Origin: Verrucomicrobiota bacterium
GTDB lineage: Bacteria; Verrucomicrobiota; Verrucomicrobiia; Palsa-1439
Length of the DNA: 64,000 nucleotides
Direction of reading: 5' to 3'
Assembly: GCA_037127585.1 (NCBI GenBank)
Contig: JBAXYB010000002.1
Coordinates: 3,701-67,700 of the forward strand
This document shows positions 31,746 to 55,301 of this stretch, piece after piece. The position numbers and the translations under genes are program-made. How positions within the stretch are numbered: position 1 is the stretch's first letter; each line of letters begins with the position of its first letter. The notes beneath the pieces are model-generated. The model had not been told where the DNA came from and made no database searches. It saw only the letters and a program-made list of their open reading frames with translations.

Positions 31746-33191
31746 TCACAACTTTTTTTCAAAGTGACGTTTTTGTGGCGGTTTTGCGACGAAATCTTTT
31801 CGCTCACGCGCCCGGAGTTCGAGCACGACCGGGCAACTGGTGAAGCTGTACGTCGCCCGGACTTTGTCCGTGAGGAAGCGTTCGTAGTGTTTCGTCAAAC
31901 AATCCACATCATTGACGAATAAAAGGAACCGCGGCGGCCGTGTGGACTTCTGGAAAGCATAATAAATTTTGAATCGCCGGCCGCCCACGTACGACGGTGG
32001 ATACGCGTCGATGGCGCGGGCGAGCAACCGGTTCAACGCCGGCGTCTCGATCTCTTTCTCCATCTCGCTGTCGATAACGCCAATGGCTTTGAATAACTCG
32101 TTCACCCCTTGGCCGGTCTTCGCCGACGTGAATAACACCGTTGCCCAATCCAAAAAGAACAATTCCTTGTGCAGCGCCTCGATGTATTCATCGCGAAAAT
32201 CTTTCTGGCGCTTGCCGGCAGCTTTCATATGGCGCGTTTTCGCGTCCAATTCAGCGGCGAGATCCCACTTGTTGACCAAGATCACGCAGGCGCGTTTGGC
32301 TTCCGCGATTTGGCCGCCGATCTTCTGATCCTGTTTCGTCACGCCGGCCACGGCATCGAGCACGAGCACGGCCACGTCGCATTCCCGGATCGAGCGTTCC
32401 GCGCGCATCAACCCAAATTGATCCACCGACGTATTAATCTTGCTCCGGTGCCGCAACCCGGCCGTGTCGATGAGCATGTATTCCTTGCCGGCGAGCCTGA
32501 ACGGCACGTCCACCGAATCGCGCGTCGTCCCGGCCACCTCGCTCACGATGGTCCGGTCGCTCTTCAAGAGAGCATTCACCAGCGACGATTTACCGACGTT
32601 GGGGCGGCCCACAATCGCAATGCGCGTGGGGCGGACCGCGACTTCGACTTCGCCGACCGGGAAATCCGCTGTCGCCGTTTCCACGAGACCTTCAACGCCC
32701 TGCCCGTGAATCGCCGCGATGGCGAACGTCGCCTCGAATCCCAGTTCGCTGAACTCCGCCACATCTTTGGCGCGTTGCTCGTTATCAACCTTGTTCACCG
32801 CGAGAAAGACCGGCTTACCGCTCCGCCGCAATTTCTTCGCGATCTCCAAATCCAACGGCGTCACCCCGGCCGTCACGTCGACAACCATCACCAATGCGTT
32901 GGCCATCTCGATCGCGACTTCCGCCTGGCGTTTCGACGCGATGGCGATCAAGTCGCCGCCCTTCTCCTCGTCCATGAACGCGATCCCGCCGGTATCCACC
33001 ACCTCAAAATGTTTATTCCCACTCTCCGCCGGCGCGCTGACCCGGTCGCGCGTCACGCCGGGTTCTTCGTGGACAATGGCAATGCGCCGCCCGGCAATGC
33101 AATTGAAGAGCGCACTCTTCCCGACATTGGGGCGGCCGACGATGGCCAAGATGTGTTTTTTCGCAGTCACAACGGAAACTCGCACGCGCAT
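31746..33191 (-). CDS. der: ribosome biogenesis GTPase Der (EngA), two tandem GTPase domains + KH-like domain
   Basis: ORF 31746..33278. Start at Met30 (33191). Two G1 motifs GRPNVGKS and two G-domains. Confidence 0.85.
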   Translation of the reverse strand: MRVRVSVVTAKKHILAIVGRPNVGKSALFNCIAGRRIAIVHEEPGVTRDRVSAPAESGNKHFEVVDTGGIAFMDEEKGGDLIAIASKRQAEVAIEMANALVMVVDVTAGVTPLDLEIAKKLRRSGKPVFLAVNKVDNEQRAKDVAEFSELGFEATFAIAAIHGQGVEGLVETATADFPVGEVEVAVRPTRIAIVGRPNVGKSSLVNALLKSDRTIVSEVAGTTRDSVDVPFRLAGKEYMLIDTAGLRHRSKINTSVDQFGLMRAERSIRECDVAVLVLDAVAGVTKQDQKIGGQIAEAKRACVILVNKWDLAAELDAKTRHMKAAGKRQKDFRDEYIEALHKELFFLDWATVLFTSAKTGQGVNELFKAIGVIDSEMEKEIETPALNRLLARAIDAYPPSYVGGRRFKIYYAFQKSTRPPRFLLFVNDVDCLTKHYERFLTDKVRATYSFTSCPVVLELRARERKDFVAKPPQKRHFEKKL

Positions 33192-33263
33192 CCTAGCCGC
33201 GCGAAACTTTTTGTCCAGCCCCGGACTCGCTTCGGCGCAAAATATTATGCTAGCTTTTCCGAA

Positions 33264-34436
33264 ATGACTGCCCGGCAAATCGCTCTTGAACTTCTCGACG
33301 CCTGGCCGCGCGCGCGCCAGTTCGCCGACGAGCTGCTCGACGAACGGGCGAAACTACCGGCGCAAGACCGCGCTTTCGTGCAGGAACTCTTCTACGGCTG
33401 TCTCCGGCACCGGCTCGAGCTCGATTATCTAATCGAGTCCGTCGCCGGCAAGAAACCGCGCCCGGTCGTGGCCAATCTGCTCCATCTCGGCCTCTACCAA
33501 CTTCACTACCAGAAGACCGCCCCGCACGCTGCCGTGCATGAAACCGTCGAACTCGCGAAACAGCACGTCAGCCCGGCCGAAGTGCGCTTCATCAATGCCG
33601 TGCTCCGCCGGACCGACCCGGCCGCGCTGGAACGCGCCGAACCGTGGGTGCGGCTGTCGCATCCGCGCTGGTTGTATGACCGGCACGGTGCCGCGTGGTG
33701 CGAATGGAACAATCAACCGCCCTCCATATATATACGGATCAATACGCTCCGAACCGGCGGCACAACCTCGCCTCTAGCGGCTGAGCCGACCGCTCATCCG
33801 TTGGCGTGGCGCGTTACTGACTCAGCCGGCATGTTTAGCTCACCGGCCTGGAAGAATGGCGAGTTCTATGTGCAAGATCCGTCCACGTTGCTTGCGGTAG
33901 ATGCGCTTGACCCGCAACCGGGCGAGGCCATTCTTGATATGTGCGCCGCGCCGGGCGGTAAGACCACCTACATCGCCGCAAAAATGCAGAACCGCGGCCA
34001 GATCATCGCCGCCGATTCGTCGAATGTCCGGCTGGGTTTGGTGACGGAGAATTGCCGGCGGCTTGGGATTACCATCGTCGCGACCTTGGCCTGCGCGAAT
34101 GGCCGGTGTCTGCGCGGCCGGCAATTCGATCGGGTGCTCGTTGATGCGCCGTGCTCAAATACCGGCGTCATGCGGCGGCGGGTGGACTTACGGTGGCGGC
34201 TCCAACCGGCGGAAATCACCCGGTTGGCCGCGATCCAGAAAAAGTTGCTCACGGATGCCGGTCAGTTTGTGAAGCCGGGCGGGGTGCTTGTCTACAGCAC
34301 GTGCAGTGTCGAGGCGCAGGAAAACGAGCAGGTGGTCACGCAGCTACCGGGGTTTGTGATCGAAGCCCAGCGCGCCGTGGTGCCGCCGCGCGATCAGATG
34401 GACGGCGCGTTTATCTGTAAATTGCGCGCGCCGTAA
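33264..34436 (+). CDS. rsmB: 16S rRNA (cytosine967-C5)-methyltransferase RsmB/Sun
   Basis: ATG at 33264 within long ORF 32169..34436. NusB-like N-terminal domain and SAM-MTase core with catalytic DAPCSNTG and TCS motifs. Confidence 0.85.
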   Translation: MTARQIALELLDAWPRARQFADELLDERAKLPAQDRAFVQELFYGCLRHRLELDYLIESVAGKKPRPVVANLLHLGLYQLHYQKTAPHAAVHETVELAKQHVSPAEVRFINAVLRRTDPAALERAEPWVRLSHPRWLYDRHGAAWCEWNNQPPSIYIRINTLRTGGTTSPLAAEPTAHPLAWRVTDSAGMFSSPAWKNGEFYVQDPSTLLAVDALDPQPGEAILDMCAAPGGKTTYIAAKMQNRGQIIAADSSNVRLGLVTENCRRLGITIVATLACANGRCLRGRQFDRVLVDAPCSNTGVMRRRVDLRWRLQPAEITRLAAIQKKLLTDAGQFVKPGGVLVYSTCSVEAQENEQVVTQLPGFVIEAQRAVVPPRDQMDGAFICKLRAP

Positions 34437-34503
34437 TGTGGGAGCGGCCTCAGTGCCGCGACCGACAACTCAACATCTGTCGCGGCGCTGAGGCCGCTCC
34501 CAC
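34437..34503. repeat. palindromic REP/MITE-like element, family 2 (TGTGGGAGCGGCC ... GGCCGCTCCCAC), copy 1
   Basis: ~23-nt arms that are near-perfect reverse complements around a 20-nt loop, between convergent rsmB and the LTXXQ gene. Shares termini with the copies at 46230 and 54406. Confidence 0.7.
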
Positions 34504-34568
34504 GTTCTTAAAATAGAACGGCTCTCGTCCGTTGCCGAACGAGAGCCGCCTGGAAGGATCAACGTCAA

Positions 34569-37348: not shown

Positions 37349-37891
37349 CTATTCCATCTGCCACTTCACTTTGACGCCGCGCTTCTGACCGAAACGATCG
37401 ACATAGAACACTTCACCGGCCGCCTTGCCGTATTCATGGAGTTCTTTCGTGATCTTCACGTCGAAACAGCAGTACTCGGCGATCTCCATGATCCGGCCTT
37501 CCTTCCACCACTTCAAAGCGGCCATGCCATCAGCGACTTTCGGAGCGCCGAGCGTCGGCACAGCGCACGATTCGAGGGACACGCGATGACCGAGCGTGCC
37601 TTCGAGGTCTTTCATCAAATCCAGCGTCGGGACTTCATGAAAATCAAACAACGTGTAGTGCGTCAACACATCGTAATCGAAGTTGATGATGTTGAAGCCG
37701 ACGACCAAGTCCGCCCGGCGCAGTTGCTTGATCAAATCCTCGACCTGCGACTCGGGGAAAATCCGGTATTGCCCCTCGCCGGTGCTATACGTAACTCCGA
37801 CCGAGACGAGCATGTCAGCCTTCTTGTTCCAGCCGCCGACTTCCGCCGCGCTCTTCTGCGTTTCCAGGTCGAAATAGACGATATTTTTCAT
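37349..37891 (-). CDS. DEDDy-type 3'-5' exonuclease (DnaQ-like fold, standalone 180 aa)
   Basis: Exo I YFDLETQ, Exo II VVGFNIINFDYDVL and Exo III YCCFD (Y-x3-D) motifs. Confidence 0.7.
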   Translation of the reverse strand: MKNIVYFDLETQKSAAEVGGWNKKADMLVSVGVTYSTGEGQYRIFPESQVEDLIKQLRRADLVVGFNIINFDYDVLTHYTLFDFHEVPTLDLMKDLEGTLGHRVSLESCAVPTLGAPKVADGMAALKWWKEGRIMEIAEYCCFDVKITKELHEYGKAAGEVFYVDRFGQKRGVKVKWQME

Positions 37892-37902
37892 TTTGATTCC
37901 CT

Positions 37903-37962
37903 GCGCTGTGCAGAAGCGCAGCTACAACGGCTCTTGGTGTAGCGGCGCTTCTGTGAAGCGCC
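37903..37962. repeat. palindromic element family 1: two hairpin units (GCGCTGTGCAGAAGCGC-AGCTACAAC and GTGTAGC-GGCGCTTCTGTGAAGCGCC) facing each other
   Basis: Read from the sequence; related to the units at 45611-45686 and 55311-55337. Lies 12 nt upstream of the exonuclease start and just downstream of the 37971 gene stop. Confidence 0.65.
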
Positions 37963-37970
37963 GTTCGATG

Positions 37971-38984
37971 TCATGCGGCAATCCTTGGCAACCCCAGCGT
38001 CCGCATCGTGTGCAAACCCGCCCGCGCTTCCATCAAGAGCGGCAAAGAATTCACCAGCAAGGCCGGCGTCGCAATGTCACCGGGCGTCCCGCCGTCGAGC
38101 ACGAGTTTCATCGGCGGATCGCCGGCAATCTCGATTTGGTCGCGCGGATTCTCTGCGCCGGCATACATCTGCAACTCCAACCGCAAAACTTCCTTACCCT
38201 TCAACGCGCCGACCGCGACCTGACGCACGCCGGCCACTTGACCGGGCGCCGCCGTGAAATATTTCGTCTTGATTGGCTTAACGGCGAGGACAGGTCCGAT
38301 GCTCTCGTCCACTTTTTCCAACTTCCAACCCAACGCATCCGCCAAAAACACCAACGACTCCGTCAACCCGACATGCCGGATCTTCTTGTCGCTCGCGAGC
38401 TTCGTAAATTCCGCCTCGCTGATGCCGACGCCGACCTTGCGCTGCAACGCCTCGCGTCGCGTCGCGGCATCCACCACGCGGGTGACATGAATCGTGTCGA
38501 TCTTCCGGCACGCTCCTGTCAACGCCAACGCCAGCGTGTCCATCACAAAGCCAGGATTCACGCCGGTGCCGACCACTGCGCAACTTTTCTTGACGCACAT
38601 GTCGTCGAGTTCGCCGGCCAAAACGGGATTCCGGTATTTCGGAAACATCGCCTCTTCGCAGGACGTCACGCAATGCAGCCCGGCTCGCACGATCTCGACC
38701 AGTTGCGGGTACACATCCGCAAAACTCGACCCGGTACAATGAATCACCGCATCTGCCTGCGTCTGCCCGAACAACACCACCGCCTTGTCCGTGACCTTGA
38801 AGCCGAGTTGTCGGCCAATGCCCAGCACATCGCCGAAATCGCGCCCGACCGCCTGCGGATTCAGATCAACCGCGCCGACCAGTTGCATGTTGGATTTTTG
38901 GAGGACCAGTTCCGCCGCCGCGCGACCAATCGCTCCCAGCCCATACGAGATAACACGAATAGGTTTGCTCATCGTGTCCGCCAT
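37971..38984 (-). CDS. DapB-like NAD(P)-binding oxidoreductase (dihydrodipicolinate reductase / amine dehydrogenase family)
   Basis: ORF 37971..39056. N-terminal Rossmann IRVISYGLGAIGRAAAEL. Start placed at an internal Met (38984 or 38972). Confidence 0.55.
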   Translation of the reverse strand: MADTMSKPIRVISYGLGAIGRAAAELVLQKSNMQLVGAVDLNPQAVGRDFGDVLGIGRQLGFKVTDKAVVLFGQTQADAVIHCTGSSFADVYPQLVEIVRAGLHCVTSCEEAMFPKYRNPVLAGELDDMCVKKSCAVVGTGVNPGFVMDTLALALTGACRKIDTIHVTRVVDAATRREALQRKVGVGISEAEFTKLASDKKIRHVGLTESLVFLADALGWKLEKVDESIGPVLAVKPIKTKYFTAAPGQVAGVRQVAVGALKGKEVLRLELQMYAGAENPRDQIEIAGDPPMKLVLDGGTPGDIATPALLVNSLPLLMEARAGLHTMRTLGLPRIAA

Positions 38985-40138
38985 ATTAACACAGCGCCTG
39001 CGGCAAAGAGAACTGTTGAGTAACCAAACGCCACCGCCGGCGAGCACGTCGTCCACAACACGCCCACCACGATGCTCGACAGAAAATCGCCGACGCCGTT
39101 CACCGTCGCCAACACGCCGAATCCCATCCCGTGATGTTCCTTGTCCACCAACTCCGCCGCGAGCGAATCCTCCACCGCCTCCTCCGTCGCCACAAAGATG
39201 CCGGCGAGCACAAACACGAGCACCAGCACCGGCAAGTTCATCGGCGCAAACACCAACACCAACCCGGTCACTGCCGCCAGCCCATACCCACCGGCCAGCA
39301 GCGCGCGCTTATTCATATGATCCGCCAGCCATCCGGCCACAAACGCAAAACCGGCATAGAGCACGTTATGTAGCACGTACAACGCAACCGCGATGCTCGC
39401 CGCCTTGGCCTGACCGTATTGCGGCGTCAGCTTCTGCGTTGCGAGCAGGATTAACATTGAGTGTGCAAAGTCACCGGCCCCAAACAAACCCACCGCCAGC
39501 AAAAACCGCTGAAACGATTTCGGCAACGCCGCCAACCGGGCCCGAAACGAAATGTACTTCACGTGAACCCGGTCCTGTTCCTTCACCAACAACGCAATCG
39601 CCGCTGCCGCCAGCAATCCCGGGATGAGTGTCACCAACAACACCCGCGAGAAATTATTGTGGAACGCCACCAACAACAGCGTCGCCGTAATCGGCCCGAC
39701 GATCGCCCCGCACGTATCCATCATCCGCTCAAACCCAAACGCGCGTCCGTACGTCTCCGGTGTGACCGCCGCCGCCAACAACGCCTTGCGCACCGGCGTC
39801 CGCACCCCGCGCCCAAGCCACGCCCCTGCGCGACACAACAAAATGTGCCAAGCCTGCGTCGCCAACCCGATGCACGCCGTGCCGGTCGCCGTCACGAGGT
39901 AGCCGACCACCGCAATGGGTTTCCGCCGTCGCATCTGATCGGTGTAATACCCCGACCCCATCTTCGCAAAACTCGCCAACCCATCCGACACCCCTTCGAT
40001 GATCCCGAGCCACGCCGCCGCCGCCCCCATCGTCGCCAGAAACGCCGGCATCACCGCCGTTGCAATTTCGTGTGACCAATCACTCAACAATGATGCCAGC
40101 CCGATACCCAGCACCGTCCGATTAAGCCAACGCGCCAT
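38969..40138 (-). CDS. MFS transporter
   Basis: 389 aa, 12 predicted TM segments, MFS-like loop motif between TM2 and TM3. Confidence 0.8.
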   Translation of the reverse strand: MARWLNRTVLGIGLASLLSDWSHEIATAVMPAFLATMGAAAAWLGIIEGVSDGLASFAKMGSGYYTDQMRRRKPIAVVGYLVTATGTACIGLATQAWHILLCRAGAWLGRGVRTPVRKALLAAAVTPETYGRAFGFERMMDTCGAIVGPITATLLLVAFHNNFSRVLLVTLIPGLLAAAAIALLVKEQDRVHVKYISFRARLAALPKSFQRFLLAVGLFGAGDFAHSMLILLATQKLTPQYGQAKAASIAVALYVLHNVLYAGFAFVAGWLADHMNKRALLAGGYGLAAVTGLVLVFAPMNLPVLVLVFVLAGIFVATEEAVEDSLAAELVDKEHHGMGFGVLATVNGVGDFLSSIVVGVLWTTCSPAVAFGYSTVLFAAGAVLIWRTR

Positions 40139-42107: not shown

Positions 42108-43222
42108 ATCCGTTCCGTGGCTTTCGCGCGATTCTCTACAAAGAGTTCAAGGTCATCTTTCGCGACCGTGGGACGCTGTTCTTCATGTTCTTCCCGCCGC
42201 TGCTGCAGATCATCGCGTTTGGCTTCGTGCTCGACAACGACGTGAAACACATGGCGATGGCGGTGTTCAACGAAGACCGCACCGTCGAAAGCCGGCAACT
42301 CATCGATGCGTTCGTCAACACGCAGACGTTTCGCGTCGTAGCCGAAGTGAACAGTCAGGCGGAGTTGGAAGAAATGGTGCGGCGCGGTAAAGCCTACGTG
42401 GGCCTGCAGATCCCGCCCGACTTCACCCGCAAACTCCACGCCAATCAGAAAACCACGTTGCAAGTGCTCATCGATGGCTCGAACTCGACGACGGCATTGC
42501 AGGCGCTCAACACCGCTCTCGGTATTGCAATGCGTAAATCGATCGATGTGTTGTTGGGACAGACTGGCCGGCGTGAACTACCCATCGAGATGCGCCCACA
42601 GGTTCTTTACAACCCGGCCATGCGTGCCCCGAACTTCTTCGTGCCCGGCGTCATCGGTACGGCGTTGCAGATTGCGACCGTGTTCGCAGTGGCAATGGCC
42701 ATCGTGCGCGAACGGGAACGCGGCACGTTGGAGAATCTCATGGTCAGCCCCCTCAGCCGGTGGGGCTTGATGCTCGGCAAGCTCGTACCGTACGTCTGCG
42801 TGTCGATGACAATGGCACTGTTCCTCTTCACGATTCTCCGCTGGGTGTTTCTCGTCCCGATTCAGGGCAGCTTGGTGATGCTCTTTATGGCGGCGCTGCT
42901 GTACGTTTTCGCGCTCGCGTGTCTTGGGTTGCTCATATCGACGAAAGCAAAATCGCAGAACGAAGCGATGCAGATGAGCATGACGATCATGTTGCCGTCG
43001 ATTTTCTTCAGCGGCTTTATCTTCCCGCGTGAAACGATGCCGGCAATCTTCTATTGGCTCAGCACGCTCTTGCCGGCGACGTACTTCATTGAGTTGATGC
43101 GCGCGATCATTCTGCGCGGCGCGACTTTCTTCGAGTTCTGGCGGCACCTCTTGATTCTCGCGGTGATGGGCGTGGTCCTCTTCGCCCTGTGCGCCCTGCG
43201 TTTTAAGAAGAAGTTGGCGTAG
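42104..43222 (+). CDS. ABC-2 type transporter permease
   Basis: 372 aa polytopic membrane protein. 4-nt overlap with the ATPase gene. Confidence 0.8.
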   Translation: MNPFRGFRAILYKEFKVIFRDRGTLFFMFFPPLLQIIAFGFVLDNDVKHMAMAVFNEDRTVESRQLIDAFVNTQTFRVVAEVNSQAELEEMVRRGKAYVGLQIPPDFTRKLHANQKTTLQVLIDGSNSTTALQALNTALGIAMRKSIDVLLGQTGRRELPIEMRPQVLYNPAMRAPNFFVPGVIGTALQIATVFAVAMAIVRERERGTLENLMVSPLSRWGLMLGKLVPYVCVSMTMALFLFTILRWVFLVPIQGSLVMLFMAALLYVFALACLGLLISTKAKSQNEAMQMSMTIMLPSIFFSGFIFPRETMPAIFYWLSTLLPATYFIELMRAIILRGATFFEFWRHLLILAVMGVVLFALCALRFKKKLA

Positions 43223-44657
43223 TATGCTTCTCGATGTACGCCTTCACCGTGCGCCGGTCGAGGTTCGTACGCCGGGCGACTTCCTCGTACGTGGCGTGCC
43301 GCTCGTGCAAGAGTTTGCAGTACCCGGCCAGCAACGCATCCGCATCGAGCGAACCATCGACTATCCCTGCTTGTAATCGGCCGGTCAGGTTAGGCGCAAT
43401 GGCGCGGGGGTCGCCGGTGTATTGCCGGGTCAGCAGGATGCGCCGGACGGCTTGCTCCAATTCACGGACGTTGCCGGGCCACGCATATTTTGCCGGTAGG
43501 GCTTCGCGCAGTAATGCGATAATCTCCGGCGCCACCTGCCCGGTCAGTCGGCGCACGATCAGACGGAGGAGATCGTCGAGTTCAGCGGGCTCTTCCCGGA
43601 TGCGTTGCCGAAGCGGCGGGACGGTGATGACGTCGGAACACAGCCGGTAAAAGAAGTCGTCACGGAATTGACCGGCGCCGCGCAATTTCTCGATAGGTTT
43701 GTTCGTCGCGCCAATCACCCGGCCCCGAAACCGCAGTTTCTCGTGGCTGCCGACCGGCGCGAACGTCCGTTCCTGGAGCACGTGCAGCAGTTTGATTTGA
43801 ACTGGGACACTCACGTCGCCGATTTCGTCGAGGAAGATCGCGCCGTACGGGCTGCACCGGGCGAACACGCCGTCGTGGTCGGCAATCGCGCCGGTAAAAG
43901 CGCCCTTGCGATGGCCGAATAGCTCTGACTCAATCAGCGTTTCCGGGAATTGCGACAGGTTCAGCGCAAGGAATGTCTTGGTGAAACTCTCAGCAAAACA
44001 GCCGCGTTTCTCGTCGAAGGGGATGAACCCCGACCGGCCGATGGCCGCCGCGGCCGCGCCTTTGCCGGTGCCGGTCTCGCCGAGCAGTAGTGTCGAGAAA
44101 TCTTCCATCCGGTTCCAGAGATGCCGCTCGTAGAGGCGGATATCGTGGGTGAAGACGTTGTTCCAGAGATGCCGGCGGAGTTCCTTCATGCACTCGCTAT
44201 GGCCGACCAGGCCGTGGTGGATAAAGTAGAACGCGCGGCGGACTTGGAAGATGACGGCGAAATACCGGCGCGCTTCGTCCGCCGTGAAACCGCGGCGCGT
44301 AAACAACGTCAGCGCCTTCTTCGCGAACGGTACCGGGACCGAGCGATCGCCGGCCGCGATCTGGTCGGCAATGAGTTGGTCGAAGGCGCTGAGATACCGG
44401 TGGTAGATTTCGTAGAGACACGCCGACCGGAGAATCTCGCGGTCCGCGTCGTCGACCTGCTTGAAGTTGGTGAGACCGGCGGCGTGGAGTTTGTGGAGTT
44501 CTTCATTCCAACGCTCGACCGGTGACACATCCTTGCCGCCGATAATCTGAAGCTGCAACTGATCGAACTCATCGCTGAAGGGATTACAAGCCGCCGCCCG
44601 GGTGACGAGGATGAGGAACTCGCGTTGGGCAGCCGGGAGGAGTTTTACGCTAGCCAT
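43203..44657 (-). CDS. sigma-54-dependent transcriptional activator (AAA+ NtrC-family central domain, C-terminal HTH; N-terminal sensory domain unassigned)
   Basis: 484 aa. Walker A GETGTGKG, GAFTGA sigma-54 contact motif, Walker B IFLDEIGD. Confidence 0.8.
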   Translation of the reverse strand: MASVKLLPAAQREFLILVTRAAACNPFSDEFDQLQLQIIGGKDVSPVERWNEELHKLHAAGLTNFKQVDDADREILRSACLYEIYHRYLSAFDQLIADQIAAGDRSVPVPFAKKALTLFTRRGFTADEARRYFAVIFQVRRAFYFIHHGLVGHSECMKELRRHLWNNVFTHDIRLYERHLWNRMEDFSTLLLGETGTGKGAAAAAIGRSGFIPFDEKRGCFAESFTKTFLALNLSQFPETLIESELFGHRKGAFTGAIADHDGVFARCSPYGAIFLDEIGDVSVPVQIKLLHVLQERTFAPVGSHEKLRFRGRVIGATNKPIEKLRGAGQFRDDFFYRLCSDVITVPPLRQRIREEPAELDDLLRLIVRRLTGQVAPEIIALLREALPAKYAWPGNVRELEQAVRRILLTRQYTGDPRAIAPNLTGRLQAGIVDGSLDADALLAGYCKLLHERHATYEEVARRTNLDRRTVKAYIEKHTTPTSS

Positions 44658-44680
44658 ACATTATTTGTAGCATGGCTAGT
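44641..44680. promoter_or_regulatory. 8-bp inverted repeat CTAGCCAT-N14-ATGGCTAG in the divergent region between the sigma-54 activator and the membrane-protein/rSAM cluster
   Basis: Read directly from the sequence; it overlaps the activator start codon region. Confidence 0.3.
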
Positions 44681-44784
44681 CATTTACTGTCCATCACTGG
44701 GATCGCACCTGACCGGAACTCGTGCAAATTCACCATTTCCGACACTGGCACGGCGGCAGCGTAAGGGTTTGAGTGGAGAACATC

Positions 44785-45270
44785 ATGAAGAGGCAAAATC
44801 CAATCAACCCGTTTGACCTCCTTGCGTTGGTCCTTGCCGGTGCGATGATTGAATGCCGAAGCCGGCCAGCGTGGGCGGTATTGATCGCGGTGTCCGCGCT
44901 AGCGGTCGGGCTGGGCACGTTCAGCTTCGCGACGGCCATCACGCAATTTGGCGGATTGTCCGGTATCGCCTGCGCGGCCATTGGATACATAGCACTACTA
45001 TGTATCAGGCAATCCGGCGCTGGCCGGTACGTGATGCTGGGCGCGCTGCTCCTGCTGGCCGGCAAGATCCTCTGGGAATGCGCCACTCACCGCGCACTCT
45101 TTGTCGCCAGCGATAGCCGGTTAGTCGTCTTCCCACTCGCCCATGCCATTGGGCTGGCCAGTGCATTTGGGCTTTGGCTTGGGACCAGCACTTTTCAACA
45201 ACGTCGGCGCATCCATCAAACCGAAAGGCGCGATCGTTCCGTGGCAACGACCGTCACAGTTATCCCATGA
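44785..45270 (+). CDS. small polytopic membrane protein, rhomboid-like (GxSG and AHxxG motifs), rhombosortase-like candidate
   Basis: ORF 44773..45270. FGGLSGIACAAIGY and PLAHAIGLASAFGL resemble rhomboid TM4 Ser and TM6 His motifs. Short (~161 aa). Confidence 0.4.
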   Translation: MKRQNPINPFDLLALVLAGAMIECRSRPAWAVLIAVSALAVGLGTFSFATAITQFGGLSGIACAAIGYIALLCIRQSGAGRYVMLGALLLLAGKILWECATHRALFVASDSRLVVFPLAHAIGLASAFGLWLGTSTFQQRRRIHQTERRDRSVATTVTVIP

Positions 45271-45695
45271 ACGCGACCCCGGTAACACTGAACTGGTTTG
45301 TCGGCTGGTGGTTGATCCTGGCCGGCTTTGCCAGTGGTGCGGTGATTGGATTGTTCTTTCACCAGGAAAAATTTCTCGGCGGGTACGGCTCGTTTCGGCG
45401 GCGGCTGTTGCGGCTGGGCCACATCGCGTGCGCAGCGTTGGGGATGTTGAACTTGATAGTCGCCGTGGCGCCGGTGATGTCGCCGTTGCTGGCGGTTGGC
45501 GGGGTCTTGATGCCGACGGTTTGTTTTCTGACGGCGTGGAAGGCGCAATGCCGGCACTTGTTTGCGATACCGGTGCTGGCGTTGGTGGCAGGAGTGGTGG
45601 TGGTGATGTGGTGTAGTGGCGCTTCTGTGAAGCGCCCCGTCGTGGCGGGACAACTGCCCGCGCTTCACAGAAGCGCGGCTACAACCGGAGATTGA
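45267..45695 (+). CDS. small membrane protein (4 TM); C-terminal ~30 aa encoded by a palindromic repeat element
   Basis: ORF 45174..45695. Start at Met32. The C-terminus VVVVMWCSGASVKRPVVAGQLPALHRSAATTGD is the translation of the family-1 repeat. Confidence 0.4.
   Translation: MNATPVTLNWFVGWWLILAGFASGAVIGLFFHQEKFLGGYGSFRRRLLRLGHIACAALGMLNLIVAVAPVMSPLLAVGGVLMPTVCFLTAWKAQCRHLFAIPVLALVAGVVVVMWCSGASVKRPVVAGQLPALHRSAATTGD
45611..45686. repeat. palindromic element family 1: GTGTAGT-GGCGCTTCTGTGAAGCGCC ... CGCGCTTCACAGAAGCGC-GGCTACAACC (two hairpin units in opposite orientation, 22-nt spacer)
   Basis: The two 17-nt cores are perfect reverse complements and are each self-complementary (GCGCTTC-TGT-GAAGCGC). 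Confidence 0.7.
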
Positions 45696-45697
45696 CG

Positions 45698-47119
45698 ATG
45701 AAAATTGGTTTTTTGGCGATGAGCGGGATCCGGGCGCATGACCCGGAATTGTTGAAACTCGGATTGACGTTGCCGGGGTTTGTCGAGCGCAGCAAGGCGA
45801 TTGCGTCGCTGCCAAGTCTGGGGTTGCTCTATCTCGCGGCGGTGACGCCGGCCGGACACGAACTCGAATACTTCGAGGCCGAGGCGGACGGGAAGGAGTC
45901 GGTCGCGCTGTACGATTGCGATCTCGTGGCGATCAGCACGTTCTCGGCGCAGGTGTTCGAAGCGTACGCGATTGCGGATCGGCTCCGGCTGGCCGGCGTG
46001 AAGGTGGCGTTGGGCGGGTTGCATGTGACGGCGTTGCCGGCCGAGGCGTTCGCGCACGCGGACTATGTGGTGACCGGCGAAGGCGAGAACGTGTGGCCGG
46101 AAGTTGTGCGATCCGCGGAACGTGACGCGCCGCCGCGGACGTTCGCAGCGCAAATGTATCCGGCGGTCGATGTGACGCGCTTGCCGGTGCCGCGCTATGA
46201 TTTGTTGGGCGTCCGAACAGGAGAATCGATGTGGGAGCGGCGTCATTCCCCTCAGCCGGTTGCGGCGGGGACGCCGCTCCCACAACAACCGCCCGCTATC
46301 CGGTACAACCGGTTCACAGTGCAAACGACGCGCGGGTGTCCGTGGCGGTGCGAGTTCTGCGCGTCGAACGTCATGCTCGGCCAGCCGTACCGGAAGCGGC
46401 CGGTGTGGGACGTGGTCCGCGACATCGGCACGATCCAGCAAGTGCGCGAACGTCCATTCATCGAGTTTGCCGATGACAATACGTTCGTCGATAAAACGTG
46501 GGGCAAGCAGTTGTGCCGGGCGCTCGCGCCGCTGCACTTGAAATGGTTTACCGAGACCGACATCTCGGTGGCTGAGGATGGGGAGTTGCTCGAGCTGATG
46601 CACGCGGCGGGTTGCCGGCAGATTCTGATTGGGCTGGAGAGTCCGAACGCGTCGCCGTTGCATGGACTGGAGATGAAGGCGGATTTCAAGGCGCGGTGGT
46701 TTACCCGCTACGCCAACGCCATCGAACGCATCCAGTCGCACGGCATCACGGTGAATGGTTGTTTCATCCTCGGCCTCGATGGTCACGACACCGGTATCTT
46801 CGAGCAGGTGCTCGACTTTGCCCGGCAAGTGTCGCTCTACGACGTGCAGATCACGGTGCTGACGGCGTTTCCCGGTACGCCGCTGTATGCACGACTGCTC
46901 CGGGAAGGCCGCGTGATCGAGCCGGGCCGGTGGGATTTGTGCACGCTCTTTGACGTGAATTACCGGCCGGTCGGGATGAGTGCGGACGAACTGCGCGCCG
47001 GCATGCGGTGGTTGACGGAGCGACTTTACAACGACGAATGCACGCAAGCACGGAGGGCGGGATTTTTATCTTCCTTTCGGCGGGCGACGGGAACAGAATT
47101 ACAGACGAAAGCCGCATGA
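45698..47119 (+). CDS. B12-binding domain radical SAM protein (class B rSAM)
   Basis: ORF 45692..47119 (TTG). ATG at 45698 gives MKIGFLAMSG. N-terminal cobalamin-binding domain, CPWRCEFC (CxxxCxxC) cluster motif. Carries a ~19-aa in-frame insertion derived from a palindromic element. Confidence 0.85.
   Translation: MKIGFLAMSGIRAHDPELLKLGLTLPGFVERSKAIASLPSLGLLYLAAVTPAGHELEYFEAEADGKESVALYDCDLVAISTFSAQVFEAYAIADRLRLAGVKVALGGLHVTALPAEAFAHADYVVTGEGENVWPEVVRSAERDAPPRTFAAQMYPAVDVTRLPVPRYDLLGVRTGESMWERRHSPQPVAAGTPLPQQPPAIRYNRFTVQTTRGCPWRCEFCASNVMLGQPYRKRPVWDVVRDIGTIQQVRERPFIEFADDNTFVDKTWGKQLCRALAPLHLKWFTETDISVAEDGELLELMHAAGCRQILIGLESPNASPLHGLEMKADFKARWFTRYANAIERIQSHGITVNGCFILGLDGHDTGIFEQVLDFARQVSLYDVQITVLTAFPGTPLYARLLREGRVIEPGRWDLCTLFDVNYRPVGMSADELRAGMRWLTERLYNDECTQARRAGFLSSFRRATGTELQTKAA
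46230..46284. repeat. palindromic element family 2 copy 2 (TGTGGGAGCGGCGTC ... GACGCCGCTCCCACA), located in frame inside the rSAM CDS
   Basis: 15-nt perfectly complementary arms plus a 26-nt loop. Translated as MWERRHSPQPVAAGTPLPQQ between the rSAM YDLL and TTRGCPWRCEFC motifs. Confidence 0.7.
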
Positions 47120-48402
47120 AGCCTTCCAAACAAATCCAATGGTTGTACGAGGAACTTCCCAAACTCACCCAAGCCGGAGTGGTACCGGCGGAGGTGGCGG
47201 AGAAACTCCGGCAACATTACGGCGCCGCCGAGTGTGGCGGGCGCCGGTGGGCCATTGTGTTGTTCGGCATTTTGGGCGGGGCGCTCATCGGGGCCGGAAT
47301 CATTTTGTTGCTGGCGCATAACTGGGATGAGTTGTCGCGGCCGGTGCGGGCGGTGATTTCGTTTCTGCCATTGGTGATTGCGGTGGCGTTGGCGGCGTTC
47401 GTGATTTGGAAGCGGGCCGGGAGCACGGCGTGGAGCGAGAGCGTCGGGATATTTTGGGCGTTGGCAATCGGCGCGACGATTTCGCTGGTGGCGCAGACGT
47501 ATCATATCAGCGGGGATTTCCCGGCGTTCATCCTGACGTGGTCGCTGGCCGGGTTGCCGATTGTGTATCTGTTGAACTGTAGTTCGGCGGCGCTGTTGTT
47601 TTGGGTTGGCGCAACGGTGTGGGCGGGACACGCGTGCTGGAATCGCGACGAGGCGATGTGGTTCTGGCCGTTGGCGGCGTTGGCGGTACCGCATCTGTGG
47701 CTAGTGGCTCGAACAAACCGGTACCGGCCGAGGGTGGCGATGCTGATCTGGGGGCTGGCCGGGTGCGCGGCGTTTGGGATTGGGTTTGGCCTGACGCACC
47801 GGATCGAACACGCTTGGATCCCGGTCTTCACAAGTTATTTTGCGGTGTTGTACATGATCGGCAGCCGGTGGTTCGATGAGGGGCGCACTTTCTGGCAGCG
47901 GCCTCTCCAAACTATCGGGGCGTTGGGCGTCATCGCGCTCGGGGTGGCGCTGACGTTTGGGGATGCGTGGCGCGGCACGTTCCGGCAGGGGGACTGGCCG
48001 GGTCTTTTTCAGTCGCCCTTGGTGGTGTTGCCTGTGGCGGCGGTGGTGTTGTGGGTTTACACGTGGACCCGGCAGGATCCGGTGGCGTTGCTTTTCGGTG
48101 GGTTACCGGTGGTGGGGATGATTGGGACCGCACTGGCGGCCGGGCACGCTGGGGTGGTGGTGCTGGTGTTAATGAACGTGTACGTGTTGGGATTAGGCGT
48201 GGCGCTGATTACGTTGGGGGTGCGCGATCAGCGGTTGGGCGTGGTGAATCTGGGGATGCTGGTGACGTCGGTGCTCATCATCGCGCGGTTCTTCGACAGC
48301 GACATGGGGTTTGTGCTGCGCGGACTGGCGTTCATCGCGGTGGGGATCGGTTTCTTGGTGACGAATGTGATGCTGATTCGACGGAAGGGAGGCGCTCAAT
48401 GA
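47116..48402 (+). CDS. DUF2157-like polytopic membrane protein (soluble N-terminal domain plus ~10 TM)
   Basis: ORF 47008..48402. Start at the Met giving MKPSKQIQWLYEEL (47116), overlapping the rSAM stop by 4 nt. Confidence 0.5.
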   Translation: MKPSKQIQWLYEELPKLTQAGVVPAEVAEKLRQHYGAAECGGRRWAIVLFGILGGALIGAGIILLLAHNWDELSRPVRAVISFLPLVIAVALAAFVIWKRAGSTAWSESVGIFWALAIGATISLVAQTYHISGDFPAFILTWSLAGLPIVYLLNCSSAALLFWVGATVWAGHACWNRDEAMWFWPLAALAVPHLWLVARTNRYRPRVAMLIWGLAGCAAFGIGFGLTHRIEHAWIPVFTSYFAVLYMIGSRWFDEGRTFWQRPLQTIGALGVIALGVALTFGDAWRGTFRQGDWPGLFQSPLVVLPVAAVVLWVYTWTRQDPVALLFGGLPVVGMIGTALAAGHAGVVVLVLMNVYVLGLGVALITLGVRDQRLGVVNLGMLVTSVLIIARFFDSDMGFVLRGLAFIAVGIGFLVTNVMLIRRKGGAQ

Positions 48403-48968
48403 ACTGGCGCAAGAGTGTTTTGATTGTGGTGGCGGCCGGACAGTTGGCGATCCCGGCGTATCTGATTCACCGGCAGGAGACGACGTTGCGGGAGGGGCGG
48501 GCGTACAAGTTCAAGACGGCGCCGGTCGATCCGTACGACGCGTTTCGCGGCCGGTATGTGGCGTTGCGGTATGAACAAGACCACGCGCCATGGCCGGGGA
48601 CGAACCAAGTCCTGCGTCAGCAGCGAGCCTATGCGCGGGTTGAAGAGGGCGTGGACGGGTTCGCCTTGGTGCGTGAAGTCACGCCGCGGCCGCCGGTGAC
48701 AGGGGATTTCTTCAAGGTCCAGGCGAATTACGCGGGCTGGGGCACGAATGCCGGGACGGTCTACTTCACAATGCCGTTTGACCGGTATTATATGGAGGAG
48801 ACGAAAGCTCCGAAAGCCGAGCAAGTTTACAGGGCCAACAACCGGCGCGGTCAGACCAATCAGAACACGTATGCCGTCGTGCGCATCCGGCAGGGCCACG
48901 CGGCGCTGGAAAATCTCTTCGTTGCCGGCCAACCGATCACCGAGATGTTGCGCGAGAAGCAACCGTAG
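48392..48968 (+). CDS. membrane-anchored GDYXXLXY-family-like protein
   Basis: ATG at 48392 within ORF 47967..48968. N-terminal TM then a soluble domain containing a degenerate GDFFKVQANY motif. Overlaps the upstream gene's end. This family typically partners DUF2157 proteins. Confidence 0.45.
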
Positions 48969-49034
48969 TTTTTTTGGCATTTGACGGTGGGGGGTGGGGT
49001 CGGTATTCTCGGCCACTTTCTTAAGGAATTTCTT

Positions 49035-50690
49035 ATGTTTATTGCTCATGGCGAAAAAGTTCGGAAACACGCGCGGTGGATCATGTTTGGCGTGCTGGTG
49101 CTGTTGATCCCCGGGTTCGTGGCGTTATTCACGACCACGGGCAGCAAGTCGGACCGGCAGGCGGGCGATGTGCCGACCGTGCGCGGCAAGCCGGTGGTGG
49201 CGGCTGAGTTTGACCAGATGAAGGAATTGGTGCGCGCACAATACGTGGTGATGCGCGGCCGGGATCAGTCGCGGACGATGCAGATGCAGGATCAGATCAA
49301 GCAGGAAGCGGTCGTCCAGATGTTGATGCTGCAGAAAGCGAAGGAAATGGGCGTTGTGGTCAGCGAGCCGGAGTTGCAAGTCGCGCTCATGTCCCAGCCA
49401 GTCTTCCTCAACAGCGCCGGCCAGTTCGACCGGGAACGCCTCCGCCAGTTCATGATTCTGTTGAATAACAATGGCGTCAGCGAAGCGATGTTCGAAGAAG
49501 TGATGCGGCAACGGTTGTTGATTGAGAAATTGCAGGGGCTCATCACCGCCGCCGCCAAGGCCACGCCGGCCGCCGTCCAACAGGCGTACCTGCCATTGCA
49601 CGAAAAACTTTCGATCGATCTCGTGCAATTCGACATGGCCGACAACAAAGTTCCGATCACTGTTTCCAACGCCGAAGTCCGCGCGTTCTACGAGCAGAAC
49701 AAGGAATCGTTCCGCGTGCCGGCCAAAGTCAAAGTGCAGTATGCGGAGTTCACCGCGGCCGCCGCGAAGAAGACCGTTCAGTTGACCGAGGAGGAAATCG
49801 CGGAGTTCTACAACCGCAACAAATTCCGCTATGCCGGCACGAACAGCGTGCCGCAACCGCTCGATGCCGTGAAGGCGGAAGTGAATGCCGAACTGCTCAC
49901 CCTGCGCGCCGACCGCGCCGCCGCCGACCGGGCCACGGAGTTTGGCGTGAAACTGTCGCAGTCACCCAAACCGGAGTTCGCCAAAGTTTGCGCCGAGTTC
50001 GGCGTGACGCCGCTCACCACGGACTTCATCGCGGCCGTCGACAAAGTTCCCGGCGTGACGGACTTGCCGGATTTTGCGACAAAAGCGAATCGCCTCTCCG
50101 CCGACATGCCGGTCAGCGATCCGATTGGCGGGTCGAACACCTACTACATTCTCGAATTCGTGGCCGGCCAACCGAGCGCCGTCCCGCCATTCGAGCAAGT
50201 CGAAGCCGAAGTCACCAAGCAAGTCACGCAAATCCGCACGTACGGCGTGACCCTCGAACGCGCGGAGGCGACCATTGGCCAACTCAAGAAGTTGATCGCC
50301 GCCGGCAAGACCTTCGCGCAGGCCTGCGCCGAATTGAAACTCAAAATCGAAACGCCACCGGCGTTCACAGTCGCCGAAGAAAAACTAAAGTTGCCGGCGG
50401 CCGGCCAAATCCAACAGGCATCGCTTGAGATGCCGGTGAACGCGGTCAGCGAATTGATCGGCACCCCGACCGGTGGGCTGGTGTTCCACGTCCGCGAACG
50501 CCAACCGGCAGACTTGGCGGAGTTTGAGAAGGATCGCGAGCGCATCACCCGGCAAGTCTTGCAGCGCGACCGGCAAGCGTTGTTCAGCGATTGGATTCAG
50601 GCGCTCGTCCACGGTGAGCAAGTGGACTTCAAAATCCCGCGCCGCCAGCCGGAAGCCGAAGAAGTTACGGCTACCGAGTCGACGAACTAA
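49035..50690 (+). CDS. periplasmic chaperone PpiD-like protein (SurA N-terminal-like domain plus inactive/atypical parvulin region), N-terminal membrane anchor
   Basis: ORF 48981..50690. Start at Met19 gives an N-terminal TM (WIMFGVLVLLIPGFVALF). Overall PpiD-like architecture and length. Confidence 0.55.
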   Translation: MFIAHGEKVRKHARWIMFGVLVLLIPGFVALFTTTGSKSDRQAGDVPTVRGKPVVAAEFDQMKELVRAQYVVMRGRDQSRTMQMQDQIKQEAVVQMLMLQKAKEMGVVVSEPELQVALMSQPVFLNSAGQFDRERLRQFMILLNNNGVSEAMFEEVMRQRLLIEKLQGLITAAAKATPAAVQQAYLPLHEKLSIDLVQFDMADNKVPITVSNAEVRAFYEQNKESFRVPAKVKVQYAEFTAAAAKKTVQLTEEEIAEFYNRNKFRYAGTNSVPQPLDAVKAEVNAELLTLRADRAAADRATEFGVKLSQSPKPEFAKVCAEFGVTPLTTDFIAAVDKVPGVTDLPDFATKANRLSADMPVSDPIGGSNTYYILEFVAGQPSAVPPFEQVEAEVTKQVTQIRTYGVTLERAEATIGQLKKLIAAGKTFAQACAELKLKIETPPAFTVAEEKLKLPAAGQIQQASLEMPVNAVSELIGTPTGGLVFHVRERQPADLAEFEKDRERITRQVLQRDRQALFSDWIQALVHGEQVDFKIPRRQPEAEEVTATESTN

Positions 50691-54234: not shown

Positions 54235-54311
54235 TGGTGCGGCCGGCGGGAGTCGAACCCACAACCTTTGCCTTCGGAGGGCAACGCTCTATCCAGTTGA
54301 GCTACGGCCGC
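54235..54311 (-). tRNA. tRNA-Arg (anticodon CCG), 77 nt, with encoded CCA
   Basis: Minus-strand sequence GCGGCCGTAGCTCAACTGGATAGAGCGTTGCCCTCCGAAGGCAAAGGTTGTGGGTTCGACTCCCGCCGGCCGCACCA folds as a cloverleaf (7-bp acceptor, D, anticodon stem TTGCC/GGCAA with loop CTCCGAA, T-arm GTGGG/CCCGC). Confidence 0.9.
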
Positions 54312-54405: not shown

Positions 54406-54477
54406 TGTGGGAGCGCCCTTCCGGGCGCGATTTGCTCGAATGACCAACCCGGTCGCGCCCGGAAGGGCGCTCCCACA
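54406..54477. repeat. palindromic element family 2 copy 3 (TGTGGGAGCGCCCTTCCGGGCGCGA ... TCGCGCCCGGAAGGGCGCTCCCACA)
   Basis: 25-nt perfectly complementary arms and a 22-nt loop, between tRNA-Arg and rph. Confidence 0.7.
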
Positions 54478-54578
54478 ACTGGCCAGCCGGATTTTGATGG
54501 TGGTGTCAAAAGGCCCAAGCTAGGGATCGACCCAGAAATAACTTGCCGCTACTCGGCGCGCCGGTCATCCTTCGCGCC

Positions 54579-55301
54579 ATGAAACGTTTTGATGGTCGCT
54601 TGGTGGATCAACTGCGGACACTGAAAATCCAGCCGAATTATCTCGCCACGCCGGCCGGCTCGGTGCTCATCGAAATGGGGAAGACACGCGTCATCTGCGC
54701 CGCGTCGATCGAGGACGGGGTGCCGCGGTGGATGAAGGAACAGAAGGTCGTCGGCGGGTGGGTGACGGCGGAGTATTCGATGTTGCCCTATTCGACTTCG
54801 CCCCGGAAATCCCGGGAAGTCGCCAAGGGCAAGGTCGAGGGGCGGACGCAGGAGATTCAGCGGCTCATCGGCCGGTCCATACGGGCGGTGACGGATATGA
54901 CGAAGCTCGGGGAGCGAACGGTGTGGGTCGATTGCGATGTGCTCGAAGCCGATGGCGGGACGCGGACGGCGTCGATTACCGGGGCGTATGTGGCGATGCA
55001 GTTGGCGATGCAGAAGTTGATGGCGCTGAGTTTGGTGAAGGAGAATCCGGTCACGGCGGCGGTGGCGGCGGTGAGCGTGGGAGTGATCGAGGGGACGCCG
55101 TTGTTGGATTTGAATTATGTCGAGGACGTGGCGGCGGCGGTGGACATGAATGTGGTGATGACGGATGCCGGGCGGTTTGTGGAGGTGCAGGGGACGGGCG
55201 AGGAGTCAACGTTCAGCCGGGAGGAGTTGAACGAATTGCTCCGGTTGGGCGAGCGCGGGATTCAGGAGTTGCTCGCGGCGCAGCAGCAGGCGCTGAAGTA
55301 A
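54579..55301 (+). CDS. rph: ribonuclease PH
   Basis: ORF 54543..55301. Start at MKRFDGR. RNase PH conserved motifs ([17 protein letters not shown] ... [18 protein letters not shown]). Confidence 0.9.

Follow-up and report, generated by a model that had tools for sequence, protein, structure and literature searches.

A REP doublet read in frame in the interdomain linker of a verrucomicrobial cobalamin-binding radical SAM gene, and recurrent insertion at the same linker

In a 64,000-nt stretch of a Verrucomicrobiota genome (assembly GCA_037127585.1, contig JBAXYB010000002.1, positions 3,701 to 67,700; hereafter the window), a gene for a cobalamin (B12)-binding radical SAM protein contains a short palindrome, at window positions 46230-46284, that is read in frame with the enzyme. 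Our analysis suggests, with a probability of roughly 0.8, that this palindrome is a doublet of repetitive extragenic palindromic (REP) units, a so-called REPIN (REP doublet forming hairpins), which entered a four-codon linker between the two domains of the enzyme together with about 29 nt of non-repeat DNA, kept the reading frame, and persists as a tolerated selfish insertion. We describe below the element and its host gene, the repeat family to which the element belongs, and the repeated occupation of the same linker among orthologs.

An inverted REP doublet within a radical SAM gene

The gene, its linker and the parts of the element are as follows, "family A" being the name used here for the repeat family of the gene element.

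45698 to 47119, plus strand: host gene, from ATG 45698 to the stop at 47119, 473 aa; the listing of open reading frames (ORFs) extends the start to TTG 45692.
46208 to 46303, plus strand: expanded interdomain linker, 32 codons (GVRTGESMWERRHSPQPVAAGTPLPQQPPAIR) versus 4 in orthologs, a net gain of 84 nt.
46230 to 46284: family-A REP doublet (REPIN), core GTGGGAGCG...CGCTCCCAC at 46231-46283, bounded by an outermost T and A; recognized by its perfect arms, fold and doublet architecture.
46231 to 46244, plus strand: left REP, truncated, with only the head GTGGGAGCGGCGTC; about 9 nt of the hairpin are gone relative to the full copies on metagenome contigs L148 and L161 (GTGGGAGCGGCGTCCCCGCCGCGA doublets).
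46255 to 46283, minus strand: right REP, complete and inverted; the minus strand reads GTGGGAGCGGCGTCCCCGCCGCAACCGG, a GTGG head with the hairpin GCGGCG-TCCC-CGCCGC.

The ORF at 45692-47119 is the sole long one on the plus strand at the palindrome. Its product comprises a PF02310 B12-binding domain (residues 40-138) and a PF04055 Radical_SAM domain (residues 211-377) by Pfam, with the cluster motif RGCPWRCEFC (C216-x3-C220-x2-C223); the N-terminal B12 domain and the radical SAM core with CxxxCxxC that characterize Class B (cobalamin-binding) radical SAM enzymes are thus both present. A preliminary description, made from this DNA alone, had placed the palindrome inside an intact coding sequence of this kind, and the inverted repeat, the open frame and both domains were all found. 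The protein is 100% identical to P0001, annotated as 'radical SAM protein' in an NCBI metagenome-assembled genome (MAG) of Verrucomicrobiota. No equivalog reached its cut-off in an NCBIfam search of the protein, and the closest folds to its model in Foldseek are AprD4, MgmA, TsrM and CysS.

The palindrome is formed by two 15-nt arms, TGTGGGAGCGGCGTC (46230-46244) and GACGCCGCTCCCACA (46270-46284), which are 100% complementary and have 25 nt between them. As RNA, the 76 nt from 46220 to 46295 fold with -44.4 kcal/mol, compared with a mean of -28.3 for shuffled sequences (z = -4.76; 0 of 200 shuffles were as stable); an Rfam search of 45500-46500 returned chance matches only (mir-935, E = 0.54). 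Its translation, MWERRHSPQPVAAGTPLPQQ, agrees exactly with the one given previously, and lies within the ORF reading ..GESMWERRHSPQPVAAGTPLPQQPPAIRYNRF... The gene copy is a 53-nt doublet, shortened by truncation of the left unit, whose unit on the minus strand reads GTGGGAGCGGCGTCCCCGCCGCAA. The complete right unit is translated as PVAAGTPLP, in the same frame as the REP-coded PVAGRSPLP and PIAPGRALP of orthologs P0012 and P0023, respectively. An RNA-level effect of so stable a hairpin is possible. At the left edge of the element, GGAG (46220-46223) precedes, with 5-nt spacing, an ATG (46229) that is in frame with the host gene, and an internal start there could possibly give a radical SAM domain without the B12 domain.

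An 84-nt insertion in a four-codon linker

We compared the linker across 137 close homologs with 69-100% identity. Between PRYDLL and YNRF it comprises 4 residues in 126 of them (nearly always G-D-R-P), 5-9 residues in a further 4, and 14-42 residues in the remaining 7. The preliminary description had proposed an alignment with orthologs as a check, and orthologs without the element indeed do not share the long linker. A second homolog search, with P0014 as the query, returned nearly the same proteins; 17 were new, none of which has a long insert.

The nearest ortholog, P0002 (locus L001, 91% identical), has an empty site, in which GGAGACCGGCCG is directly followed by TACAAC. The L001 DNA at this site runs from TTGGGAGACCGGCCG straight into TACAACCGG, and the window adds 84 nt ahead of the same TAC. 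Because so similar an ortholog is empty, the insertion must be younger than the split from the P0002 lineage. The insertion point lies 11 residues ahead of the first cluster cysteine, and the predicted tryptic peptide of the host protein at the insert is HSPQPVAAGTPLPQQPPAIR. These data uphold the earlier proposal of a lineage-specific insertion between RYDLL and CxxxCxxC that leaves the frame intact, and revise its dimensions. The linker is truly lengthened, but the estimate of ~36 aa against ~10-15 becomes, from RYDLL to TTRGC, 39 aa in the window protein against 11 in orthologs. Moreover, the inserted segment is not the palindrome alone (~19 aa), since the net insertion of 84 nt, or 28 codons, is longer than 55 nt.

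The sequences on either side of the element (..GAATCGA then T on the left, A then ACAACC.. on the right) show no duplication. The heptamer ACAACCG was considered as a target-site duplication and rejected, since it occurs twice on the right-hand side of the element, at 46285-46291 and 46305-46311, and not on the left.

Short repeats can misassemble in metagenomes, and an artefact of assembly or binning could in principle have joined a repeat into this gene. We regard this as extremely unlikely. The gene and its insert are identical in the 85-kb NCBI MAG contig, the 62-kb NODE_244 of ENA ERZ4222710 and a Logan contig from SRR12676966, assemblies that may share reads; moreover, the sequence on each side of the insert runs colinear with that of orthologs, and the length of the insert is exactly divisible by three.

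An AlphaFold2 model built from 28 close sequences (mean pLDDT, the predicted local distance difference test, 67.5; moderate) assigns pLDDT <50 to residues 175-207, between the PRYDLL helix (169-172) and the first barrel strand (207-209). The structural check proposed in the preliminary description is answered in part, in that the insert has no confident structure in this model. The Pro/Gly/Ala-rich insert is probably disordered and surface exposed; the low pLDDT agrees with an unstructured loop, as weak evidence.

A dispersed GTGG-headed REP family with an associated transposase gene on a related contig

The termini TGTGGGAGCG...CGCTCCCACA of the gene element are common to two further doublets of the window.

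34437 to 34504: second family-A REPIN, extragenic, starting 1 nt past the stop of ORF 32169-34436.
54406 to 54477: third family-A REPIN, with 25-nt perfect arms, extragenic, between the minus-strand tRNA-Arg(CCG) gene (54235-54311) and ORF 54543-55301.

Because the same termini recur at these sites, the gene element is a member of a repeat family, as had been suspected, with three doublets of identical termini within the 64-kb window. The REP unit of the third doublet is identical in its core (54407) to the single REP of ortholog P0023. A terminator-like hairpin (34519-34548) follows directly after the second doublet, and the ORF beyond the third presumably encodes a protein resembling RNase PH, judged by eye.

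A family-A unit comprises GTGG-GA, a 6-bp stem, a 4-nt loop, the return stem and CGCGA (e.g. GTGGGAGCGCCCTTCCGGGCGCGA), with the consensus GTGG-GA-GCGSCC-TTCC-GGSCGC-GA, and so combines a GT[AG]G head with a short GC-rich stem-loop. The exact 24-mer GTGGGAGCGSCCTTCCGGSCGCGA occurs at no fewer than 120 public metagenome loci, many of them on contigs from the same samples; by our own rough arithmetic, chance would give far below one match. Among the matches listed, 0.69 Mb of metagenome sequence holds 48 head-to-head doublets of 51-84 nt, mostly 70-73 nt, with variable spacers. The stems of these doublets vary and yet stay complementary (GCGCCC/GGGCGC, GCGGCC/GGCCGC, GCGGCG/CGCCGC and GCGACA/TGTCGC), and the GCGGCG-TCCC-CGCCGC subfamily, found in doublets on L148 and L161, is that of the radical SAM gene copy. 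A scan of genome contigs with the 14-base degenerate pattern GTGGGAGCG-N10-CGCGA lacked specificity and gave, among the matches listed, mostly single chance matches in GC-rich genomes. Around 46 distinct family-A doublets, flank conservation is confined to positions -1 (T/C) and +1 (A/G), with no duplicated target. Because only the adjacent base is conserved outside the doublets, the ~29 remaining inserted nt of the radical SAM gene are not part of the repeat.

As non-autonomous elements, REPINs presumably owe their mobility to a REP-associated tyrosine transposase (RAYT). On metagenome contig L225, an ORF matches the NCBIfam profile NF047646, 'REP-associated tyrosine transposase', over its full length (1-146 of 146) with 111.9 bits (cut-off 80; E = 2e-32); its match to Pfam Y1_Tnp is weak, at 22 bits just under the 23-bit cut-off. 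Family-A elements accompany this ORF on both sides, a doublet upstream at 187-259 and a single unit at its 3' end at 796-819. This appears to be the REPtron arrangement that defines REP-RAYT systems; it concerns the family, as seen on this related contig, rather than the source genome. The RAYT ORF itself holds a family-A unit in frame at 498-521, read RSRPEGRSH, and the next gene, for an enoyl-CoA hydratase/3-hydroxyacyl-CoA dehydrogenase, has an in-frame doublet at 1401-1458. A second candidate, a Y1 (IS200-like) transposase-like ORF at L251:5700-6300 that a RAYT-like consensus matched in tblastn, was not used as RAYT evidence, as it runs off the contig end and lies 1.6 kb from the nearest REP; it is preceded by tandem GGTACCAGGGGGGTC-type repeats rather than by family-A REPs.

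Recurrent insertion at the same linker

The seven orthologs with a long linker are the window gene (P0001), P0006, P0009, P0012, P0013, P0014 and P0023, all of them among the 23 best matches to the window protein (~75% identity or more). Each insert occupies the same four codons, and the right boundary is constant, with the TAC of YNRF directly after the insert in all seven. The inserts themselves are of several kinds: family-A doublets in the window gene and in P0012 (64 nt), one lone family-A unit of 30 nt in P0023, a doublet of a second family, B, in P0006 (TGTAGCGGCG...CGCCGCTACA), and GTGGGACAA-headed hairpins in P0009, P0013 and P0014. The latter were not shown to be a repeated family in the DNA compared, and are REP-like only. 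No REP-like insert was seen elsewhere than in the linker in 28 aligned proteins.

After masking of the linker, the closest sampled relative has an empty site for six of the seven (e.g. P0006-P0010 at 97.0%, P0001-P0002 at 90.9% and P0013-P0026 at 90.6%). The exception is P0012: P0014, its closest relative, carries an unrelated element, and the site is empty in P0029, the next closest. The in-frame inserts of P0013 and P0014 resemble each other, yet the two proteins share only 81% identity, and each has closer empty relatives. Because the closest sampled relatives of the occupied orthologs are mostly empty, parsimony favors some six or seven separate gains, and this recurrence indicates that the linker either is strongly permissive for inserts or is itself a true hot spot of insertion.

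A true mutational hot spot, at which REP/REPIN insertion is targeted by local DNA sequence or structure, can coexist with the tolerated insertion of a REPIN proposed here. Linker inserts of 14-42 aa in 7 of 137 orthologs amount to about seven events on 12 nt, a clustering that speaks for a preference of some sort or for REP turnover being very high in these genomes; different element types share the one site, the closest sampled relative is empty in six of the seven cases, the TAC boundary is fixed, and candidate targets can be named, e.g. the small palindrome GACCGG..CCGGTTC around the empty site. Local targeting is nonetheless unlikely on balance. The 46 doublet flanks described above lack any conserved motif beyond one base per side, and the distance from the REP end to the TAC varies (1, 19 and 25 nt in the three family-A inserts). 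In addition, the protein is highly conserved (mean column identity 63%, dN/dS, the ratio of nonsynonymous to synonymous substitution rates, 0.07), so that selection alone could confine inserts to one loop; and with about five REP loci in the 64-kb window, the occupancy of a permissive slot may simply be high. That the G-D-R-P linker is a genuine hot spot, at which a handful of nucleotides attracts REP units of several families independently in different lineages, we likewise consider unlikely. If it were one, the filled and empty ortholog sites would constitute a natural experiment on how RAYT-mobilised REPINs choose targets, how they insert, and why extra non-repeat DNA arrives with them.

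In-frame copies in other genes and the state of the host gene

All six frames of the family-A unit are open. We screened 152 distinct family-A elements for an open frame of at least 80 codons on each side, which gave many candidates, ten of which were scanned against Pfam. A single Pfam domain match spans the copy in four proteins (an AcrB/CusA-type pump, an LplA-type ligase, a type I phosphodiesterase and MnmA), and the copy falls in a domain-free, mostly interdomain segment in another four (an enoyl-CoA hydratase/3-hydroxyacyl-CoA dehydrogenase fusion, an FAD oxidase/Fe-S protein, a fragment of methionine synthase (MetH) and a RACo-like protein). In-frame family-A copies in other real genes are thus common, with at least eight Pfam-checked cases, and the peptides they encode recur (WERPSGRD, CGSALPGAT, VGAPFRAR, VAPGRALPQ, SRPEGRSH and RARKGAPT). 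The contig L148 (Ga0247727_10003629) carries both the P0023 radical SAM ortholog, with its single linker REP, and the AcrB/CusA-type pump, whose in-frame family-A doublet is of the GCGGCG-TCCC-CGCCGC subfamily and reads ..GAASPPRPGGMGNRGGDAAPT...

These copies bear on whether the host gene might be broken or split, either as a young pseudogene or with its radical SAM half made separately from ATG 46229. Such a state would fit the GGAG-N5-ATG at the left edge of the element and the -44 kcal/mol hairpin in the coding region, and the insertion is so recent that purifying selection after the event is not demonstrable. We nevertheless judge it very improbable. The frame is open through the element and both domains, and dN/dS against L001 is equally low in the B12 half 5' of the insert (0.078) and in the radical SAM half 3' of it (0.073), with dS ~0.65; six other orthologs keep in-frame inserts, P0013 and P0014 both remaining in frame at 81% identity; and the eight or more Pfam-checked genes tell the same way. 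By these substitution rates the host gene as a whole is under strong constraint, a constraint that is not datable to the period after the insertion.

It is very improbable, in our estimation, that the insert has been co-opted, whether as a flexible linker that alters domain motion or partner binding, or as an RNA hairpin that regulates translation or mRNA decay in the operon. REP hairpins are known to affect mRNA stability, the operon that contains the element is conserved and encodes two small membrane proteins, the radical SAM protein, DUF2157 and GDYXXLXY, and one site has been filled repeatedly in several lineages. Yet the peptides added at the linker resemble one another neither in sequence nor in length (14-42 aa), no insert is present in 126 of the 137 homologs, and the non-repeat flanks of the family-A inserts are unrelated between orthologs. 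Furthermore, the presence of the same repeats in unrelated proteins argues against a specific function, and similar reasoning has been applied to intragenic REPs elsewhere (PMC3733652).

Relationship to known repeat systems

The element, by its sequence, is a REP doublet of an already known kind, from the GTAG-type superfamily with a GTGG head. Like other GTAG-type REPs and REPINs (Nunvar et al. 2010; Bertels & Rainey 2011, PMC3116915; PMC3733652), family A has a GT[AG]G head with a GC-rich hairpin and is apparently dispersed in high copy; it likewise forms singles and inverted doublets with variable spacers, includes subfamilies with complementary stems, coexists with other REP families, and borders a RAYT gene on L225. 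GTAG-tagged REP families were defined by Di Nocera, De Gregorio and Rocco (BMC Genomics 2013, PMC3733652), who found Opitutus terrae, a member of Verrucomicrobia, to be highly enriched in them, and most of its GTAG-20 units carry a GTGG head. They also described intragenic REPs, in frame as singles and as dimers encoding 20-30 aa, most numerous in O. terrae, and suggested that these are possibly neutral and sit in flexible linkers or loops (PMC3733652). The preliminary description had considered the phenomenon unreported for this lineage, which is incorrect at the level of the phylum, given these intragenic GTAG/GTGG REPs of a verrucomicrobium. The present case resembles those of O. terrae in phylum, GTGG head, and in-frame singles and dimers, and differs from them in REP sequence family and host gene; the O. 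terrae table (Additional file 3, ~70 rows) includes no radical SAM enzyme (PMC3733652). Recurrence at one site also has a precedent in Xanthomonas recB, where orthologs carry different REPs at about the same site (PMC3733652); the recurrence described here is denser, with seven orthologs at one four-codon site and at least two proven families. Unlike typical REPs, which are by definition mostly extragenic, the gene copy lies mid-gene within an ORF, has a truncated left unit, and is accompanied by ~29 nt of non-repeat DNA.

Two other classes of palindromic repeat had been invoked for comparison. Bacterial miniature inverted-repeat transposable elements (MITEs) have terminal inverted repeats derived from insertion sequences, span 100-300 bp, and generate target-site duplications (TA for Correia). 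Like Correia/NEMIS and other MITEs, the gene element is a small palindrome that is non-autonomous and can become fused to coding sequence. A Correia-type MITE was rejected, as the element spans 53-55 nt (vs ~100-155 bp), comprises two REP units, and has neither a TA nor any other target duplication. With its GTGG head, hairpin units, inverted doublets and no target duplication, the element is a REP/REPIN instead; its occurrence as singles and inverted doublets and the RAYT-flanked copy on L225 likewise speak against the Correia-type comparison. Rickettsia palindromic elements (RPEs), of which RPE-1 spans ~100-150 bp, are the more apt comparison at the level of the phenomenon, an in-frame insertion after which the gene stays open. 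As cited in the REP survey, they are the classic parallel of palindromic repeats in frame in genes (Ogata et al. 2000, cited in PMC3733652). The family-A copies share with RPEs their occurrence as in-frame palindromic repeats in genes that are probably still functional, to which they add surface peptide segments. The lineage is unrelated, as the sequence family presumably is, and the two are set apart by lineage and head type, the intragenic REPs of Rickettsia carrying CGTC heads, not GTAG/GTGG (PMC3733652).

A second slot and the gene neighborhood

Family B, which fills the linker of P0006, is represented in the window by two loci.

45612 to 45683: family-B REPIN, TGTAGTGGCGCTTCTGTGAAGCGC...GCGCTTCACAGAAGCGCGGCTACA, read as the C-terminal tail of a small membrane-protein ORF whose end (45695) lies 2 nt ahead of the radical SAM start codon.
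37901 to 37962: family-B REP pair with heads facing (..CTACA acggctcttgg TGTAG..), between the minus-strand ORFs 37349-37891 and 37971-39056.

Family B recurs at window position 37939, and 8 times in ortholog loci. In the upstream membrane-protein gene the doublet encodes the tail ..WCSGASVKRPVVAGQLPALHRSAATTGD, followed by the stop codon. In orthologs the tail of this gene is contributed by family B in L005, by a GTAGGG-headed family in L001, L006 and L007, and by another palindrome in L003; L008 and L009 have no such element. The 3' end of the gene is a second slot with rapid REP turnover and behaves like the linker. Neither this tail element nor the other linker inserts had been noticed in the preliminary description.

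The neighborhood of the radical SAM gene is conserved between the window (43203-49070) and L006, L007, L008 and L010, and comprises a sigma-54 activator on the opposite strand, the two small membrane proteins, the B12-radical SAM protein, DUF2157 and GDYXXLXY. L006 differs in that its radical SAM gene is followed by two more radical SAM genes, a Rieske protein and a GH3-like protein.

A probably tolerated insertion and its implications

The sequence of events we propose is that two inverted GTGG-headed REP units, forming a non-autonomous REPIN that would have been mobilised by a RAYT in the source genome, landed in the G-D-R-P linker between the cobalamin-binding domain and the barrel. Because all six frames of the repeat are open and the 84 nt amount to whole codons, the gene is intact and can be read through the element; translation would then yield the Pro/Gly/Ala-rich segment. 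The insertion would have survived because the frame was kept and the linker tolerates extra residues. The insert is most likely selfish, neutral or mildly deleterious, and tolerated on account of the structural permissiveness of the linker.

Several points weigh against this account. A tblastn search with a RAYT-like consensus, which is a weak test, detected no RAYT in the window or in the ortholog loci. Of the 84 inserted nt, ~29 lie outside the REPIN consensus, and because this non-repeat DNA came along, the event was not a clean cut-and-paste of the REPIN alone. Since the insertion postdates the split from the nearest sampled ortholog, the evolutionary record of the gene does not prove that the enzyme still works with the insert. 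Finally, the structure model is moderate (mean pLDDT 67.5), and a loop modelled with low confidence need be neither disordered nor exposed.

Overall, these data reveal no new kind of element or mechanism, and their added value lies in the recurrence at one linker. Read from the sequences compared here, REP doublets in this verrucomicrobial clade would routinely end up translated within conserved enzymes, in this case 11 residues ahead of an Fe-S cluster motif. Pipelines for annotation and for structure should expect such low-complexity loops, and treat them neither as errors nor as lineage-specific functional motifs. The linker marks a site at which B12-radical SAM enzymes accept 10-38 extra residues, and its occupation in seven orthologs is a compact data set that could help to separate target preference from selective tolerance in the biology of REPINs.

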